This document shows positions 3,027-19,920 of a DNA stretch of 64,000 bases, in pieces; position 1 is the stretch's first letter; every line of letters begins with the position of its first letter. This stretch comes from a virus. The position numbers and the translations under genes are program-made. The DNA lies in IMG/VR virus record IMGVR_UViG_3300044974_000943. One strand, written 5' to 3'. Below the pieces are notes generated by a model, which saw only the letters and a list, made by a program, of their open reading frames with translations, had not been told where the DNA came from and made no database searches.

Positions 3027-3572
3027 ATGCAACACTTCGCAGACTTTGGGTACGTTAGACAAGCTAATAAACAACTGAAGCGATTGTACGATTTACAAGG
3101 CACAAAGATAGCGATACCTGATAAATCGAGACTAAACCCTGCCACTTTAGAAACAGGATTAGGAAATATCTCTGGCAATCTAACAAAAGATTTTGATAAA
3201 GGTCTTATAAATACAATCCCAAAAAATACCTTAAACCAAGTTAATCTGCAATTAGAAGAAAAATTAAGTAGGAAAAGAGCTATTAGACAATCAGGATTAG
3301 ATAAACAAGACCCTTTAAGTAGACCTATTAGACATAGCTACAACGAATACGATGCACCAGCCGTACTCCCTAAAACTGGTTGGTCTGATATTCGTAAAAC
3401 TGATGACCGAGCAGCTAGTCCTACGGGATATCTTGGATTCCGTACCGACCCTTACAAGGGATATGGAGGTATGATGGAAGAGCCTATACCTAAACCAGAC
3501 TTATATCCTGATGGTATGCCTCAGACTGTTAAAAAATACGCCAGCAGACTGAGCAGAAAAGAGGTTAATTAA
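3027..3572 (+). CDS. Hypothetical basic protein with MQHFADF N-terminal tag (candidate internal virion protein)
   Basis: N-terminus nearly identical to 53987..54370 (MQHFANF). Confidence 0.7.
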   Translation: MQHFADFGYVRQANKQLKRLYDLQGTKIAIPDKSRLNPATLETGLGNISGNLTKDFDKGLINTIPKNTLNQVNLQLEEKLSRKRAIRQSGLDKQDPLSRPIRHSYNEYDAPAVLPKTGWSDIRKTDDRAASPTGYLGFRTDPYKGYGGMMEEPIPKPDLYPDGMPQTVKKYASRLSRKEVN

Positions 3573-12112: not shown

Positions 12113-12183
12113 GCCCAAAGTCAGATTCGGACTGACGACCTTTGGTTTACAAAACCACTGCTCTCCCACTGAGCTAATAACCC
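12112..12183 (-). tRNA. tRNA-Thr(UGU)-like gene with unpaired acceptor stem (possible pseudo-tRNA)
   Basis: D arm GCTC/GAGC, anticodon loop TTTGTAA, T arm GTCAG-TCCGAAT-CTGAC; acceptor GGGTTAT/TTTGGGC pairs poorly. Confidence 0.7.
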
Positions 12184-12186
12184 AGA

Positions 12187-12259
12187 CTCCTCCACTTGGA
12201 CTCGAACCAAGGACATTCGCGTTAACAGCGCGACGCTCTACCAACTGAGCTATAGAGGA
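12187..12259 (-). tRNA. trnN: tRNA-Asn(GUU)
   Basis: Canonical cloverleaf: TCCTCTA/TGGAGGA, anticodon arm TCGCG-CTGTTAA-CGCGA, T loop TTCGAGT. Confidence 0.95.
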
Positions 12260-12262
12260 TTA

Positions 12263-12336
12263 AGCGAAACGAGAGACTTGAACTCTTAACCTTTCCCTTG
12301 GAAGGGGCTGGCTCTACCAAATTGAGCTAGTTCCGC
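12263..12336 (-). tRNA. trnG: tRNA-Gly(UCC)
   Basis: Acceptor GCGGAAC/GTTTCGC, U73, loop CTTCCAA; two mismatches at top of anticodon stem and one in T stem. Confidence 0.85.
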
Positions 12337-12340
12337 GTAT

Positions 12341-12417
12341 TGGAGGCAGAGTTCAGATTCGCACTGAATGATGTCCAACTTATGAGGATGGCAAGCCGCT
12401 ATTGCTTCATCTCTGCA
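12341..12417 (-). tRNA. Atypical tRNA-Met(CAU), initiator-like, with encoded CCA
   Basis: T1xC72 mismatch, GCAGAG/CTCTGC, D stem AAGC/GCTT, loop CTCATAA, T loop TGCGAAT, 3' CCA. Confidence 0.75.
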
Positions 12418-12423
12418 ATTTTT

Positions 12424-12434
12424 AATATAACACA
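12424..12434 (-). promoter_or_regulatory. Extended -10 promoter of the tRNA cluster
   Basis: TGTGT-TATATT, then 6 nt to the first tRNA nucleotide (12417). Confidence 0.65.
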
Positions 12435-12520
12435 AACTAAACTTATGTATATCTATCTTAAGAGGTATTATCTCCAAGGTACAAATTTGATAAGTTGCCA
12501 AACAGCCAAAATCCAAGTAA

Positions 12521-13446: not shown

Positions 13447-13637
13447 TATTTTACTGCTGTATCAGGTAAGGAGTCAATCCAGTCCTCAAAAACAGATGTC
13501 ATTTTTTTCTCACGCGAATCAGCGTAATTTTTTAGCTTATCCATGCGTTTTTCAGATATGACCGCATTAAATCTTTTACTTTTATCGATATTGCTCATTG
13601 TTTATGTTTTTTATATGTTATACTGTATTTATTATAC

Positions 13638-14483
13638 ATGAAAGGACGAGTATACGCAATGGTTGAGACTTGGATTTTATATCAAACTACGAACGTTTGC
13701 AATGGCAAAATTTATGTTGGGGTACATAAATTAGCTAACACTAAAAGGTCTAAGAATTATCTTGGAAGTGGTTATGCTTTGAAACCAGCTATCGAAAAAT
13801 ACGGCATAGAAAATTTTACCAGAGTAACTTTAGCAGAATTCAATTGCCCCGAAAATGCCTACGATGCTGAAGCTAAGGTAGTTACAGCAGATTTTATTCT
13901 ACGTGAAGATACCTACAATATTAGATTGGGTGGTAAAGGGTGTTGGGGTTTGAAACATTCAGAGGAAACTAAAAAGAAGATGTCTGTTACCAAGAAAGGT
14001 ACGGTTGTGAATCCTGAAACTAGGATGAAACTCAGTACTGCACTAAAAGGTAAACCCAAAACGGAAGAAACTAAAAGAAAGATGAGCGCTAGTCAAAAAG
14101 GTAAAAAAATTAGCGAAGAACATAGAGCCAGTATTAAAATTTCCCATAACACACCTGAAGCTAAAGCTAATATGAGTGCTGCTCAAAAGGGCAAAAAACT
14201 GAGTGAAGAGCATAAATTAAAAATCAGTGTGGCTAAAAGTGGGGTAAATAACCATAATTTTGGCAAACCTTGTCCTGACGCAATTAAAGCGAAAATTAGT
14301 GCAGCTTGTAGTGTACCTGTAATAGTATGTGGAGAATACTATAAATCTATTGACAAAGCTTCAAAAACTAAAGAAGTTACCTATAAGACAGTATTCTACA
14401 GAGTTAAATCTGACAATCCGAAATGGTCAGAATGGCGCTTAGCTACCGATGCAGAAAAATTGTCTCATCTGAGTGAGTTATAA
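13638..14483 (+). CDS. Free-standing GIY-YIG homing endonuclease with NUMOD3 repeats (Seg-like)
   Basis: ILYQTTN..NGKIYVGVH..YLGSG..AIEKYG.ENF; repeated HSEETKKKMS/SEEHKLKIS. Confidence 0.9.
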   Translation: MKGRVYAMVETWILYQTTNVCNGKIYVGVHKLANTKRSKNYLGSGYALKPAIEKYGIENFTRVTLAEFNCPENAYDAEAKVVTADFILREDTYNIRLGGKGCWGLKHSEETKKKMSVTKKGTVVNPETRMKLSTALKGKPKTEETKRKMSASQKGKKISEEHRASIKISHNTPEAKANMSAAQKGKKLSEEHKLKISVAKSGVNNHNFGKPCPDAIKAKISAACSVPVIVCGEYYKSIDKASKTKEVTYKTVFYRVKSDNPKWSEWRLATDAEKLSHLSEL

Positions 14484-14486
14484 TGA

Positions 14487-16046
14487 ATGCAATCAATAAA
14501 ACTTTTTATTATCCCTATGCCGATGTTCGAGGAAGCAACCCAGTTAAGCCTATTAGAAGACCTAGACGATTCTTTGTTGTTTGCTGGGACTCCTACGCCT
14601 ATGGCAGCACTTCAACAAGGGATGTACTCAGTAGAAATTCAGTCGTTAACGGCAGATGCACAAGCCGAAATAAATCATCCAAACGAAACTGAGCGCCCCA
14701 GCATAAAACAGTTAAGTGAGCTAGGTAATCGCGACCCCGTAGCCAAACAGTGCTTAAGTTTCAAAGCGTTAAGATGTACAAGCTCATTTGGCGAATACTC
14801 CCACAGCAAGCGCGAGATAGAAGAATTTGTAAACTCAAATTTAAGAACATTACCAAAAAGCTTTAAAAAAATTATATTTCAGATTTTTACCTCAGCTATT
14901 CTCTATGGGATAGGTCTTGCTGAGTTCACTAAATCGTCTAAAATAAGGGGGTATCGTGGTCAATGGCGTATAGGTAATATTCACGTTTTAAATCCTGAGC
15001 AAATCATATCTTTCGGAAAATCCTCTAAAAGTTCTGGGAAAATTGAGTGGGTACTTTACGATAATGGAAATGGGAAGCAAGTAAAAATTCCATATCAGAA
15101 GCTCTTGCATATCACAAACACAAGCGGGGCAGCCTTTGATAAGACCGCGATTTGGGGTGTAGGCGACGGTGCAGCCGCAAATTCGTACTACAAATTAAAA
15201 AAAGTAGTACTCACACACCTAGCACTCCGCATCAAAAACGATAGCGAAGGTCTACTCTGGGCAAAAACACCCAACAACGGTACGACCACAATGGTTGACA
15301 CCCAAGGTAACGTTAAAAAAGACAACAAGGGCAAGCCACTCCAACTAACAAAACAAGCTGCTCTTTCGCACCAACTAAAAGACATTCAAAAGCGAGGATT
15401 CATCGTCACCGATAACGACGTAGAACTCAGCCGCATCCAAATACAAAACACCAGCGAAAATCACTTCAAAGCGTTAGAATACATCGATAGAGGCATTCAA
15501 TCCAGTTTTGCCATACCTTCAGGCATCTTTGACGTTAATAGCGGCTCAGGAACGACAAATCTAGGTAATAACGGCTTTGGTCAAAATTTCAAGATGACCT
15601 TTGACTCAACCATCTTCGCACTAACTACCACACTCAAGCACGAAATTATCCACAAAATGATTCGTGGCTTATTACACGACAACTTCCCTTCAAGTTGGTT
15701 CAGCGAAGATTGGGGCGAGTTTGTATTCGATGTCGAAGAAGACCAAGCAACAGTTAATGGTCGTCTCAGCACTATTACTTCACTTATTGCATCTGGCATC
15801 ATTCCTGCCGATGACGTTGAGGTACTTAGCCTTATCCGTAAGAACCTTGGATTACCTTCACTCGATGAAGACGAAAAAGCCAAGAAACAAGAAGATGCAC
15901 TTAAAGCTGAGATACAAAAAGAATTACAAAAACAAAGTGAAGTATTGGCTCTACAGGCTCAAATCCAGCAAATGCAGATGCCTCCTGCCCCACCAGAAGG
16001 ACAACCTGAGCAATATCCTCTTCAAGAGGGAGCGCCGCAAGCATAG
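14487..16046 (+). CDS. Portal protein (DUF935/Mu gp29-like)
   Basis: 519 aa; AILYGIGLAE, KIPYQKLLH, WGVG, ALEYIDRGI..F.IP, IIHKMIRGLLHDNF, IRKNLGLP. Confidence 0.75.
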   Translation: MQSIKLFIIPMPMFEEATQLSLLEDLDDSLLFAGTPTPMAALQQGMYSVEIQSLTADAQAEINHPNETERPSIKQLSELGNRDPVAKQCLSFKALRCTSSFGEYSHSKREIEEFVNSNLRTLPKSFKKIIFQIFTSAILYGIGLAEFTKSSKIRGYRGQWRIGNIHVLNPEQIISFGKSSKSSGKIEWVLYDNGNGKQVKIPYQKLLHITNTSGAAFDKTAIWGVGDGAAANSYYKLKKVVLTHLALRIKNDSEGLLWAKTPNNGTTTMVDTQGNVKKDNKGKPLQLTKQAALSHQLKDIQKRGFIVTDNDVELSRIQIQNTSENHFKALEYIDRGIQSSFAIPSGIFDVNSGSGTTNLGNNGFGQNFKMTFDSTIFALTTTLKHEIIHKMIRGLLHDNFPSSWFSEDWGEFVFDVEEDQATVNGRLSTITSLIASGIIPADDVEVLSLIRKNLGLPSLDEDEKAKKQEDALKAEIQKELQKQSEVLALQAQIQQMQMPPAPPEGQPEQYPLQEGAPQA

Positions 16047-16052
16047 TAGTTA

Positions 16053-16061
16053 TGTTATACT
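16053..16061 (+). promoter_or_regulatory. Extended -10 promoter (TGT-TATACT) for the downstream structured RNA
   Basis: Same spacing as other promoters here predicts +1 at G16068. Confidence 0.6.
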
Positions 16062-16067
16062 AAAAAA

Positions 16068-16293
16068 GTCCTAGAGGGATTCGTAGGCATTACGAAATTA
16101 CTGATTTCTAGAGTCGGTGGTTGAACCTGTCAAAAACCGTAGGCATCACGGGACTCTTAACTGAGGCGCAAAAGTTAAGAGTCAAAACTGCCTGATATCT
16201 ACAGGCTCTGAAAGGCTACTAACAGTCCTCAAACTTCGGAGCGAAACAGCAGACTAAGCCTCTCACTGAAGCTGAAACTAGTCTGCGCCCTCT
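16068..16293 (+). ncRNA. Unidentified multi-hairpin structured RNA (~225 nt)
   Basis: Closing stem 16073-78/16288-93; perfect 11-bp stem 16152-62/16173-83; 8-bp stem 16249-56/16279-86; G-U-rich stem 16097-16121; two CGTAGGCATYACG hairpins; no listed ORF spans it. Confidence 0.7.
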
Positions 16294-16467
16294 TTATTCT
16301 TTTTCATCTGACGAAGTTGCCGCTTGCTCCTTCTTTTTTCTGACGTATTTTTTAGTTTCTTTTTCTACAACAGGACTAATCAAATTTTGTAGCCCTGTTT
16401 GATAAATATTTGCAAAGTTAGCGCCCGACGAATGAGCCTTAGCGAAATGAGTGAAGTGTTTCATCAT
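16294..16467 (-). CDS. Small basic protein with MKHFTHF..ANF N-terminus
   Basis: Start moved to MMKHF, 4 nt after the stop of 16472..19171. Confidence 0.6.
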   Translation of the reverse strand: MMKHFTHFAKAHSSGANFANIYQTGLQNLISPVVEKETKKYVRKKKEQAATSSDEKE

Positions 16468-16471
16468 ATTT

Positions 16472-19171
16472 TTATGGGGTAGTATCGATTGTTGTGGTTC
16501 CAGAGTAAGCGCTGATTTTGGTGCTATTGAAAGCATACAACCTAGCATAATATACAGTCGTTCCACTCAATCCGAAGATTAAGAATTTGTTATCAGCAGA
16601 CCTAGTAACACTAAGCTCTTCGAGAATTGTGAAAGTACTTGCACGACTAATCTCCAACTTATAATCGGTAGCATTACTTACTTGAGCGAACGTAATCTCA
16701 ACTTGACTTTCATCAAGTATATTGACATTAGTAATACTTGGCGCTGAAGATATAGCTAACGCTGTATATAGCTCTGCTGGTGTATTGATGGTAAGTGTAG
16801 TTGATGGCGAAGCTGTGCGATTAGTACCGTTATACCCATAAGCACGTAAATAATATGTGCGATTAGGTTTGAGTAAAAGCTCGATATTATTGGAACTGCT
16901 CTCAAAATAGGTATTGTCGAGTGTGAATGCACTATCTCGCGCCAAATTGACTAGATACTTAGAATAGCCAGTTAACACTACGTTTGCTCGGTCAAAATCA
17001 GCACTTCCACTAAGAGTTACTGTAGGAACCGTAAGAGATGCAGTACTAGGTTCTTCTGTATCACTAAACAAATTAGTTTTGAATAGGTATGGAGTAGAAA
17101 CATTTGAATTGGAGTCATATACAATTACCTGATATTGTGTGTCAGCAGAAAGAGATTCAAATGTGTAGCTATTAACGTCACCAACATTTTTTGGGAACGT
17201 GAAGCCACTTACAGGCACATAGTTGCCAGTATCTAGCACTTTTAGTTGGACACTGTATGAAGTAGCTCCAGCACTGCGCTTCCAGATGGCAGAAAAGGAA
17301 GTTTTGCCAACGATGCCCTTGTAGACCGCCAAAGCTGATGTACTGACCACATTGGAGTAAATGCCGCCGTTAAAGTTGCCGCGAATATAGTAATTGTTGT
17401 TGGAATCGAGCAAATTCTCTATATTGAAGCTGCCATTGTTTGCTACGCTTCTTGGATACCCTCTAAGCAAGAACTTGAAGTCAGAATCAGTGCTAACTTC
17501 AAGATTGTTGAGATTGTATGTCCAAGTTAGGAGGTTTTTGGCTAGTTGCAGTATAGGTGCAGCCGCTTTGGTCGAAAATGTCTGTATTGCAGTTGTTTTT
17601 GTGTCGCCAGATGCTGTTTTTCCAGTGATTGTGTAGCTGTAGTTTCTACTTGGCTCTAAGAATAGGTCAATTGTATGTGTGTTGGTGTTGCCGAGGCTCT
17701 TGTTGCGGTAGAAGTTGACCCCTAAGTAAGCATTTGACTCTGTTTTCCATACTGACAGCAAATAATTGGTGTAGCTGCCATTCAAAGTCCACCCAATAAC
17801 TGCCGAAGTATCGGTAATGCTAGTTGTAGTGATTCCAGTGATGCTTGTAAGGGCTGCTGAAGTTGTTGTAGTAACTGCATTGGAGTAATCTGAGGACTGA
17901 CTAGAATTGAGCGCCCTAATACGTGAATAATAGATTGTTGCAGGGCTAATGCCTTCATCCAACAACAAAGACCCGACATTCCCTACGATAGTAGAATAAG
18001 CAACCGAAGCAAATACGGATGAAGTACTTAACTCAAACAAATATCGAGTTGCATAACTGCGTAGAACCCATTGAAATAAGATACTACGAGAAGTGATTGT
18101 TGTCGGTGTGAGCAGTTGAGGGGGATTGAGAGAAGTATTAAGTGAAAGAGTAGTTACAACTTGTGTAGCGGAATATGCAGTCGTTTGCCATACAGAAATT
18201 GCCCGTACTCGCACATAGTAAACAGTTGCCGTAGTTAGTCCCGTAAAGCTGACCGACGTATTCTTGGTTGCAATAGTTTGCAAGATGCTGCTGAAATCTG
18301 ATGTAGCTGAAATTTGGACGCTATAGCTATCCGCCAAAGCCACTGCGTTCCAAGATACAGAAAAAGAAGTGAGGTAAATATCACTGATGTTGCTAATACT
18401 AGGAGTTGTGAGGTTCTGAAATTGTTCGTCATAAGTCTCTACGTCTCGAAGCGTCGTAAAAATAACCACATTGCTGCTAGATGAAGTTGTCGTGCCATCT
18501 GAAGCCCTTACACGATAGTAATATTGGTTTTCAGCCGTAAGTGACCCTACATCGCGAAAACCGACATCCCCAGCGTTGACGTTGTTTAGTATTAAAGAAG
18601 TAAACGCAGTGTCGGTTGCCAAATCTACAAAATAGGTGGTCGCGCCAGTTACTTTGCCCCAGTTAAGCTTTGCAGATATAGCCGTCAGGCTGGTTGTTCC
18701 TAGAGCATCAGGGATAGGAAAATTTGTCGTTGTTGAGAGTGAAGCTGAAGTCCACGCCGATAAACCAGTTTCATTTGAGAAGCGTAAGCGGTAGTAGTAT
18801 AGAGTTGAAGCCGCTAAGCCGCCAATAGTAAGTGCAAGAGTTTCTTTTTCTGTCGCAACTACGTTAGTGTCGAGTAAGAATGTCAAATTAGAATAAAGTG
18901 GTGCGCTAAAATCAGCGTTTACCGATACGTCAAGTTTTAGCTCTTTTATGTACTCGTTAGGTGCAGTTTTTTGTAGTTCTACTCTAATAGAGTTACTATC
19001 TTTTTTTGTCGCTACTATTATGGGTTGAGATGGTGATGGAGGAGTAACGCCGATGTTACTTGATGATGCAGGAGTAGTTACTGAGACTATATTTGAGTAG
19101 GCAGATTCACCATCAAGATTGACAGCTTTGGTGCGGTAGTAATATGTGGTAGATGGTTTGATTACAGTCAT
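16472..19171 (-). CDS. Multi-FN3-repeat virion surface protein
   Basis: About 8-9 repeats of W..V..A..Y.V..S....F...L...T.YY.RVRA..S..SN.V..TT. Confidence 0.85.
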   Translation of the reverse strand: MTVIKPSTTYYYRTKAVNLDGESAYSNIVSVTTPASSSNIGVTPPSPSQPIIVATKKDSNSIRVELQKTAPNEYIKELKLDVSVNADFSAPLYSNLTFLLDTNVVATEKETLALTIGGLAASTLYYYRLRFSNETGLSAWTSASLSTTTNFPIPDALGTTSLTAISAKLNWGKVTGATTYFVDLATDTAFTSLILNNVNAGDVGFRDVGSLTAENQYYYRVRASDGTTTSSSSNVVIFTTLRDVETYDEQFQNLTTPSISNISDIYLTSFSVSWNAVALADSYSVQISATSDFSSILQTIATKNTSVSFTGLTTATVYYVRVRAISVWQTTAYSATQVVTTLSLNTSLNPPQLLTPTTITSRSILFQWVLRSYATRYLFELSTSSVFASVAYSTIVGNVGSLLLDEGISPATIYYSRIRALNSSQSSDYSNAVTTTTSAALTSITGITTTSITDTSAVIGWTLNGSYTNYLLSVWKTESNAYLGVNFYRNKSLGNTNTHTIDLFLEPSRNYSYTITGKTASGDTKTTAIQTFSTKAAAPILQLAKNLLTWTYNLNNLEVSTDSDFKFLLRGYPRSVANNGSFNIENLLDSNNNYYIRGNFNGGIYSNVVSTSALAVYKGIVGKTSFSAIWKRSAGATSYSVQLKVLDTGNYVPVSGFTFPKNVGDVNSYTFESLSADTQYQVIVYDSNSNVSTPYLFKTNLFSDTEEPSTASLTVPTVTLSGSADFDRANVVLTGYSKYLVNLARDSAFTLDNTYFESSSNNIELLLKPNRTYYLRAYGYNGTNRTASPSTTLTINTPAELYTALAISSAPSITNVNILDESQVEITFAQVSNATDYKLEISRASTFTILEELSVTRSADNKFLIFGLSGTTVYYARLYAFNSTKISAYSGTTTIDTTP

Positions 19172-19920
19172 TATCTTAAATAAGTATCTGTTTCAGGGTT
19201 GAAATTAGTAGTGTACCTAGCTACACCTTTTGTCACTCTAGCTCCCTTCATATAACCCTGAAACAGGCTAGAGAAACCAGCCCCACTAATTACGCTGCCA
19301 AGAGTGAATTTAGGATTAGCAATATTGTTTAGCTCCACTGTTCCGCTAGTTCCCTCAATTCCATTTACCCAAATACGAGCTGTTGTGCCGACTTTGGTTG
19401 CGGCGACATGATACCAAGTATTCAAGGCGATTGTCGTTGAGAAAAATGCACCATTTAAAGTTACCCAATTTCTAAATCTAAATTCATTAGCGCTGGCACA
19501 CAAGAATATACCAGCATCACCCCATGAAAAGCCTTGAGCATTGCCCATAATGGCTGTTGTTACACCTATACTTGTAAAGCGCACCCATACCTCGAAAGTG
19601 AGGTCGCCAGAGCCAAATGTAAGTCCACTATCCGTGAGAGTTTCTAAGTAATTAGTGCCGCCAGTTGCAGGAAAGAACAGGGAACTTGTCCCATATTTGA
19701 TTTGGTCGGTTGAAGTTACTACATTACCAATTCTTGTAATAAACCTACTTCTACTGCTACTATCTGTAATTACAGTCCCATTATTAACTCCCTCACCTTG
19801 CAATAGTAATTCTACTAAATTAAAGTAAGGTTCTGGAAATTTATAAGAGGGCAAATCAAAACCAAATAATCCAGAACTTAGTCCTAATCCTCTAGGAAAT
19901 CCATGAGTACCAAAATTCAC
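19171..19920 (-). CDS. LamG/ConA-like tail fibre head
   Basis: LLLQGEG.N..TVITDSS, DLTFEVWVR, NTWYHVAATK.G...IWVNG, RVTKGVARYTTNF.P. Confidence 0.85.
   Translation of the reverse strand: MNFGTHGFPRGLGLSSGLFGFDLPSYKFPEPYFNLVELLLQGEGVNNGTVITDSSSRSRFITRIGNVVTSTDQIKYGTSSLFFPATGGTNYLETLTDSGLTFGSGDLTFEVWVRFTSIGVTTAIMGNAQGFSWGDAGIFLCASANEFRFRNWVTLNGAFFSTTIALNTWYHVAATKVGTTARIWVNGIEGTSGTVELNNIANPKFTLGSVISGAGFSSLFQGYMKGARVTKGVARYTTNFNPETDTYLR

Follow-up and report, generated by a model that had tools for sequence, protein, structure and literature searches.

AbiF/AbiD is a widespread abortive-infection RNase and proposed ancestor of Cas13, which was shown in 2025 to be a toxin-antitoxin (TA) system with an RNA antitoxin, i.e., of type III. 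The corresponding RNA motif, abiF (Rfam RF03085), was reportedly described by Weinberg et al. in 2017. For the ToxIN system, Blower et al. are said to have found in 2012 that Pectobacterium phage PhiTE carries an RNA, pseudo-ToxI, that mimics the ToxI antitoxin RNA and lets the phage escape abortive infection. Here we report on an RNA element (16053-16304, + strand) directly after the portal gene of a phage known from a 142-kb IMG/VR record (IMGVR_UViG_3300044974_000943; CheckV completeness 98%), of which a stretch of 64,000 nucleotides (nt), the window, was analysed. We consider it probable that this RNA is an orphan antitoxin decoy that keeps the AbiF of the host silent, much as pseudo-ToxI does for its own toxin. 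This reading draws on the anatomy of the RNA, on a similarity to AbiF-linked host hairpins that is specific in both directions of search, on covariation, on the absence of a toxin gene and on a patchy, modular distribution among related phages.

In Clostridioides difficile, AbiF and its upstream RNA constitute a type III TA system, in which the RNA both binds to AbiF and neutralises the toxin, in cis as well as in trans (PMC12373285). The C. difficile RNA RCd22 carries two abiF motifs per transcript; mutations that break its stems abolish neutralisation while compensatory ones do not (PMC12373285). In the structure of PbAbiF, an AbiF of Prevotellaceae, with its RNA (PDB 8VZ6), one RNA is bound per monomer of the HEPN dimer and a single-stranded bulge blocks the active site (PMC12737573, PMC13064643). 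On the phage side, an abiF small RNA has been annotated in cyanophage S-CREM1 in a paper that proposes no decoy mechanism (PMC9964418), and for lactococcal phages, a hairpin situated at the sk1 cos site is reported to shield phage 712 against AbiF (Rince et al. 2000, summarised in PMC13064643).

The resemblance to these antitoxins resides in the 3′ third of the phage RNA, which consists of two hairpin units, C (16205-16242) and D (16249-16286). They are 6 nt apart, and the linker GAAACA (16243-16248) reads GAAACA or AAAACA in the related loci L010, L012 and L016. Unit C comprises the outer stem GCUCUGA/UCGGAGC, an A, the inner stem AGG/CCU, an 11-nt loop and the 3′ bulge CAAACU, and unit D the outer stem GCAGACU/AGUCUGC, an A, the inner stem AGC/GCU, an 11-nt loop and the 3′ bulge GAAACU. 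Single-sequence folds yield this architecture of outer stem, A, 3-bp inner stem, loop and 6-nt 3′ bulge for both units. Known abiF/AbiFr RNAs share all of this, namely the outer stem (6-7 bp), the unpaired A, the 3-bp inner stem (AGS/SCU), the apical loop and the single-stranded 3′ bulge of 6 nt, (C/G)AAAYY, together with the invariant letters AAGSCU ... SCU-AAA and, as in host leaders, a U-rich run after the last unit. Like RCd22, the phage RNA places two motifs on one molecule, although with a spacer of 6 nt as compared with 19 nt in RCd22. An earlier note, made from the letters of the window alone, had called the element unrecognised. That holds insofar as no Rfam family reaches its gathering score there. 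However, a permissive scan of 15900-16500 (601 nt) gives a full-length, sub-threshold match of RF03085 to unit D (18.6 bits, E = 1.5), and a model derived from host hairpins finds both C and D. Unit C can be recognised because it follows the same plan as the abiF consensus with a swapped inner stem (AGG/CCU for AGC/GCU).

We take the phage to be a Pseudanabaena-type cyanophage, a host group suggested by the 77-81% nucleotide identity of its portal region to the Pseudanabaena phages Pam2 and PA-SR01. A Pseudanabaena metagenome-assembled genome found in a 16S-primer scan served as host handle; its order, Pseudanabaenales, was represented by 71 genomes and the phylum by a sample of 401. Strong Abi_2 (PF07751) genes occur in 10 of the 71 order genomes (E 1e-45 to 1e-60) versus 16 of the 401 in the phylum sample, and one host-order Abi_2 protein is classified as AbiD by PADLOC (E = 6.5e-76). 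In nine of these ten order genomes (G022 being the exception) and at most of the loci in the phylum sample, the Abi_2 start codon is preceded, at a distance of about 22 nt, by a promoter-driven hairpin. The host leaders have the form stem-AAGGCU...CCUCAAACU-stem. Those of Pseudanabaenales read ACCCGCC-AAGGCUAUGCGAAAGUAUCCUCAAACUG-(U)GCGGGU and are followed by a U-rich run, and elsewhere in the phylum the same position is occupied by variants including the canonical AAGCCUCU...GCUCAAAUC type. At all 19 AbiF-linked host loci with a located hairpin, the toxin gene follows on the same strand, with its start some 22-50 nt downstream. Unit C has the inner stem and the bulge of the Pseudanabaenales AbiF leaders. 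The AbiF-linked Pseudanabaenales hairpins that Rfam does report score 24.4 and 22.9 bits, also below threshold, which points to a divergent branch that is under-detected by the curated model. A D-type hairpin in one host-order genome passes Rfam with 44.6 bits; it has the GAAACU bulge of the phage D units and a DUF29 gene downstream.

Two further observations concern the host order. Orphan abiF hairpins are present in Pseudanabaenales (L257 1501-1792; L266 1501-1799; L267 1568-2107, - strand), two of them ahead of truncated AbiF N-termini, which suggests that hosts retain antitoxin RNAs after toxin loss. In addition, there is a second, shorter Abi_2 subfamily (~230 aa, E ~1e-6) with a conserved leader of its own, CUUAAGACAUUGGG...GGGGUCUAC (L153-L155, ~1380-1460; duplicated in L153), which may be another antitoxin RNA type. 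Comparison of the phage RNA with the leaders of this subfamily revealed no similarity.

The relationship between phage and host hairpins was assessed with covariance models in both directions. Model R1 was built exclusively from 15 host hairpins located just upstream of cyanobacterial Abi_2 genes and was run unfiltered over both strands of the window. Unit D ranked first (31.8 bits, E 3e-7) and unit C second (18.1 bits, E 0.0045), both at full length and on the + strand. A third match (3356-3384, 15.2 bits) is a plain hairpin devoid of the motif and was dismissed. In the related loci L010-L014 and L016, R1 scores range from 18 to 45 bits, with D units reaching up to 45 and the counterparts of unit C 20.1-32.3, and R1 finds nothing in L001, L002, L007 and L009. 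Searches of whole genomes with R1 revealed no further copy in the phage of the window, where the element is single-copy; for Pam2, PA-SR01 and the complete genome to which L009 belongs, they revealed no copy at all. Note that unit D scored only 17.3 bits (model positions 3-40) in the whole-genome search, where the first-look candidate was apparently clipped, and that the unfiltered window score is preferred. In the opposite direction, model R2, made from seven phage units only, was run over the 71 Pseudanabaenales genomes (~310 Mb). Its top 13 matches are exactly the places found by R1, and nine of the 13 lie directly upstream of Abi_2 genes. The remaining places of R1 and R2 are orphan copies in host genomes, among them the two ahead of truncated AbiF N-termini and the D-type hairpin of 44.6 bits.

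The proposed structure is borne out by a MAFFT alignment of seven phage and 11 host units. For the ten proposed pairs, all 180 of 180 base-pair cells in these 18 units are standard, and eight of the ten pairs have changed on both sides. The alignment contains 44 double-change cells versus 11.3 ± 2.8 in shuffles, and when the 3′ partners are slid as a control, pairing falls to 25-48%. The unpaired letters AAG.CU and.CU.AAA (columns A9 G10 C12 T13 ... C T. A A A), on the other hand, are invariant across phage and host units. Stems that vary around fixed single-stranded letters are the pattern expected of a hairpin that is recognised by a protein. The apical sequence of the C unit in L016 is that of the Pseudanabaenales hairpins save for one compensatory change in the inner stem. 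Unit C is not a verbatim host copy, since an exact-pattern scan of 185,579 species genomes returned 0 matches to its core. Nor did units C and D have any BLAST match among 50,697 records of cultured phages.

Unlike the abiF/AbiFr RNAs of hosts, that of the phage comes without a toxin gene, has changed outer stems, stays below the Rfam threshold and is fused to about 130 nt of unrelated hairpins. No Abi_2 protein was detected at E <= 1 in the 142-kb genome, and no + strand gene follows downstream of the RNA, where the next + strand sequence consists of the 3′ ends of convergent genes. Because an AbiF-type RNA is thus present in a phage that has no AbiF gene, molecular mimicry is the most likely explanation. 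The RNA is phage-encoded, toxin-less and similar to the antitoxin RNA of a defence system in the host group, as a mimic should be. In common with pseudo-ToxI, it reproduces the antitoxin RNA of a host type III system in a phage, in more than one unit and without the toxin, and neutralisation in trans is proposed for it. It differs in that its target would be the HEPN protein AbiF instead of ToxN, in that its units are hairpins and not 36-nt pseudoknot repeats, and in being known from sequence alone. The S-CREM1 RNA is likewise of abiF type and resides in a cyanophage, and phage-borne copies are on record in Rfam as well (three phage genomes). The S-CREM1 copy, however, is a single unit that passes Rfam (51.6 bits) in a T4-like Synechococcus phage, while the present RNA is divergent, arrays two units and belongs to another group of phages. 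The sk1 hairpin, too, is phage-borne and counters AbiF, as is proposed here; it is situated at cos, is reportedly not similar to the AbiF noncoding RNA and is not a promoter-driven RNA gene.

How such a decoy might act can be outlined as follows. An extended -10 promoter that closely follows the portal stop codon would drive rightward transcription of the RNA gene, giving a molecule whose 3′ third, units C and D, is the RNA type that cyanobacteria, among them the Pseudanabaena order, have about 22 nt in front of their genes for AbiF/AbiD (Abi_2, HEPN RNase). Infection would shut down host transcription, and the labile host antitoxin RNA would decay. The phage RNA would then supply antitoxin hairpins in trans, so that AbiF would stay inactive and abortive infection would be prevented. 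Two units per RNA would suit the binding of two RNA hairpins by an AbiF homodimer. Alternatively, they may serve against two AbiF variants, since the inner stem is of the Pseudanabaenales type (AGG/CCU) in one unit and canonical (AGC/GCU) in the other. The earlier note had thought of a protein sponge or anti-defence RNA that displays repeated AGGC loops. This idea gains support from the two complete abiF-type hairpins; the AGGC loops do not stand up as the reason for it.

Transcription of the element is suggested by the extended -10 element TGTTATACT at 16053-16061 (+), which starts 6 nt after the portal stop. An extended -10 of the form TGnTATAyT is found at the same post-portal position in most relatives. 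Furthermore, the window has only two occurrences of the 12-nt motif TTRTGNTATAYT, one at the element and one ahead of a tRNA operon, against 0.24 expected, and the two promoter sites share similar downstream sequence too. The proposal that the RNA has its own promoter is therefore upheld, although a simple -35/-10 scan detected no full sigma-70 site at the element. The predicted transcript of about 230 nt (16068-16304, +) would begin some 7 nt past the -10 element and reach as far as the U-rich tail, both ends being deduced from these signals. Its 3′ end (16288-16304) consists of the CCCUCU arm of a closing stem followed by the U-rich tail UUAUUCUUUUU, where transcription likely terminates. 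All relatives with the RNA have kept the sequence GCGCCCU(A/C)U together with a U-rich run, and such a run is likewise found 3′ of host abiF hairpins. The tRNA operon mentioned above (12120-12435, - strand) encodes tRNA-Gly, tRNA-Asn and a third tRNA-like gene (12176-12120), which is reported by Rfam (41.5 bits, model positions 8-63) while ARAGORN is silent on it. The operon is preceded by the extended -10 motif TTGTGTTATATT (12424-12435), and a leader of about 85 nt (12337-12420) lies between this promoter and the first tRNA.

The distribution of the element was followed in 12 IMG/VR loci whose portals are 77-85% identical to that of the window. The full 225-nt version is present in L008 (100% identical) and L010 (97%). 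L014 has one of the 5′ units, termed X units, followed by unit C. L012 and L013 combine an unrelated 5′ leader with C and D, L011 has the same type of leader with D only, and L005 and L006, whose leaders are of this class as well, end within D at their contig ends. In L016, a different leader precedes C and D units with different stems. At the post-portal site of L007 (~4551) there is neither promoter nor RNA nor hairpin, and L009 (a 100% complete genome), Pam2, PA-SR01 and L160 have other genes or a plain terminator at the site. At least one abiF-type unit is thus kept in every RNA-bearing variant, while each 5′ module is present in some variants and missing from others; from variant to variant, compensatory changes make the outer stems of the units differ. 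Window positions 16087-16286 and L008 positions 3188-3387 are 100% identical, as compared with 61-96% per 100 nt for the portal DNA next to them. This mosaic boundary around the cassette indicates that exchange was recent or that constraint is very strong. In its patchy distribution and swappable modules, the cassette resembles accessory anti-defence genes. A metagenome scan with the portal protein returned only two loci, neither of which has the RNA, and scans of viral contigs found the same phage lineage only, apart from one chance match (L162) and 60 chance matches of a 15-mer of hairpin B1 inside coding sequences.

The post-portal site is a hot spot for swaps in general. In Pam2 it is occupied by an open reading frame (ORF) with a T5orf172 domain (L001 3194-3802), and in PA-SR01 by a 273-aa ORF on the other strand together with a terminator hairpin (L002 3207-4028).

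Several points weigh against an AbiF decoy. Transcription, AbiF binding and neutralisation or rescue are steps that we infer from sequence, and the true host of this uncultured phage would have to carry AbiF. The Rfam abiF scores of 18.6 bits for unit D and 21.0 bits for the D unit of L012 compare with a gathering score of 37 bits, and unit C goes unreported by that model. The E-values of R1 and R2 are rough because of a quick calibration; robust are the ranks, together with the reciprocity of the two models. The near-invariant host outer stem ACCCGCC/GGCGGGU is replaced in every phage unit, and if AbiF reads the outer stem, binding of the phage units could be poor; note that one AbiF-linked host hairpin (L234) has the phage-type outer stem GCAGACC/GGUCUGC. 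The cultured relatives Pam2 and PA-SR01 manage without the RNA. Finally, the decoy model covers none of 16080-16204, more than half of the RNA.

On the + strand, the minimum free energy (MFE) of the element is -77.5 kcal/mol (z = -4.33), a value that none of 200 shuffles equalled, while the - strand gives z = -2.14. All the stems that the earlier note had drawn between 16053 and 16293 are present, and its view that the element does not look like tRNA or tmRNA agrees with the silence of ARAGORN and of the Rfam models on 16053-16300. A closing stem, formed by AGAGGG (16073-16078) and CCCTCT (16288-16293), appears in the MFE as well as in the centroid structure and is seen only in the variant represented by the window, L008 and L010. 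The 5′ half that follows its first arm consists of two tandem X units 56 nt apart, each with a small hairpin bearing the invariant sequence CGUAGGCAUYACG, a long hairpin and an A-rich tail. X unit 1 (16080-16136) begins with the hairpin TTCGTA-ggcat-TACGAA (16080-16096; loop GGCAU) and continues with a 12-bp hairpin (16096-16122), restricted to the + strand by its five G-U pairs, and the tail ...CCUGUCAAAAA. X unit 2 (16137-16189) contains the small hairpin CCGU-AGGCAUC-ACGG (16137-16151), a long hairpin (16152-16183) with a perfect 11-bp stem (16152-16162/16173-16183) and the tail AAAACU. The 13-mer CGTAGGCATYACG is accordingly present twice at a distance of 56 nt, and AGGC and CTGA occur five and six times in the element, respectively. 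Hairpin E (GCCUG-AUAUCUA-CAGGC, 16190-16206) follows, the last 2 nt of which are shared with the start of unit C; it has a GCCU...AGGC equivalent in L012 and a weakened stem in L010. In X unit 2, the loop sequence UAGGCA of the small hairpin can pair with UGCCUG at 16188-16193, just 3′ of the long hairpin, a pairing preferred in the MFE structure, and a pseudoknot is therefore possible. The complementarity of the loop GAGGCGCA to GCCTC or TGCGCC, previously put forward as a possible pseudoknot or switch, comprises 5-6 nt, a size expected by chance, and L014 has a different loop and no hairpin D.

The 5′ half may act as another decoy, as a stabilising scaffold or as terminators of the convergent operon. 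The first of these options leads to an extension of the AbiF decoy that we regard as speculative and rather unlikely: the RNA would be a composite, exchangeable anti-defence cassette, in which the AbiF decoys are joined by X units acting as decoys for a second, undescribed RNA-binding defence protein, so that one transcript disarms several systems and recombination shuffles the modules. BLAST of the 5′ half against the 71 Pseudanabaenales genomes gave chance-level matches only; a recurrent 19-nt host match lies inside a conserved host coding sequence, forms no hairpin and was rejected. The 13-mer had 12 matches in the host genomes versus 10 for a backwards control. The viral-contig scans found no counterpart of the 5′ half in other viruses. 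A search for ToxN (PF13958) in the host order gave no match, and control genomes were equally silent.

It is unlikely, in our view, that the hairpin array serves to terminate or stabilise the mRNAs of the convergent operons (portal on the + strand, tail fibre on the - strand) and that the abiF-like units are a captured host fragment devoid of any anti-defence role. The element does lie exactly between convergent genes, its place is taken by a plain bidirectional terminator hairpin in the RNA-less relatives L002, L009 and L160, and host abiF hairpins also precede U-rich runs, as attenuators do. Moreover, hairpins B1 and E look like terminators on the - strand, but these two compare with 1.0 ± 1.1 expected by chance. 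A mere terminator would have no need for abiF loop and bulge nucleotides that stay invariant while the stems covary, nor for a conserved promoter that points into the element. The stem at 16096-16122 works on the + strand only, and L007 does without any hairpin at the site.

It is quite unlikely as well that the whole RNA is a sponge or scaffold that engages another host factor through its X units, with the abiF-like hairpins merely providing stable 3′ ends. Such a role would be in keeping with a 5′ half that is 100% conserved in L008 and that combines a repeated, invariant loop motif with a plus-strand-only stem. Yet X units are known in two variant types only (window/L008/L010 and L014), amounting to three copies with an invariant loop, the unit of L014 having the same stem and a different loop, whereas the abiF units are the common core of all RNA-bearing relatives. 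In addition, the host searches described above turned up nothing that corresponds to the X units.

An antitoxin may of course also belong to a toxin of the phage itself. AbiF systems do occur in prophages, as in the phi027 region of C. difficile (PMC12373285), and many ORFs of the present phage lack a family assignment, so that a toxin missed by Pfam Abi_2 might make the locus a type III TA system of its own, serving, e.g., to exclude rival phages. We judge this very unlikely, since no Abi_2 match was obtained genome-wide even at E <= 1, since the 3′ ends of convergent genes take the place where host toxin genes would start, and since relatives gain or lose the RNA without any linked change in genes. 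That the RNA acts in packaging or assembly in the manner of the phi29 pRNA, as its position beside the portal gene, and nothing else, had led the earlier note to consider, is extremely improbable, because an essential assembly RNA should not be missing from close relatives, and the cassette is absent from L007, L009 (complete), Pam2 and PA-SR01, all with homologous portals, its content differs between the relatives that have it, and Rfam yields no match to pRNA or to any family besides the weak one to abiF.

The portal gene (14487-16046; Portal_Mu/Phage_portal) ends with the stop codon TAG at 16044-16046, followed by 6 nt and then by TGTTATACT. From the opposite side, a 90-aa ORF and a tail-fibre-like gene rich in fn3 domains converge on the element. 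The stop codon of the 90-aa ORF (16294-16296) is overlapped by the 3′ end region of the RNA, and the ~240 nt between the portal gene and this ORF contain no + strand ORF of at least 30 aa. The proteins encoded at 16472-19920 (- strand) have fn3 and Laminin_G_3 (ConA-like lectin) domains typical of tail fibres; for homologous genes in Pam2 (L001 4075-7031), the GenBank labels 'receptor protein tyrosine phosphatase delta' and 'botulinum neurotoxin type A' look like annotation artefacts. Immediately 5′ of the portal gene lies an endonuclease ORF with a NUMOD3 motif (13638-14483, +), which is itself preceded by TGTTATACT at 13616-13624. As Pam2 and PA-SR01 have no gene at that position, this ORF resembles a homing-endonuclease insertion.

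The abiF motif, the nature of AbiF as a type III TA system, the bare annotation of an abiF RNA in a cyanophage (PMC9964418) and RNA antitoxin mimicry directed at ToxIN are all known already. The literature searched, which did not extend to a key 2025 paper in Cell, contained no proposal that phage abiF RNAs act as anti-AbiF decoys. Pseudo-ToxI, the RNA mimic known so far, is directed at another family of toxins. Should the phage RNA indeed neutralise AbiF, a Cas13-like nuclease would have an inhibitor that is compact and defined by its sequence. Such a function would also explain why abiF-type RNAs exist in phage genomes and would provide a handle for predicting which cyanobacteria a cyanophage infects, while the 5′ modules could point to further RNA decoys.

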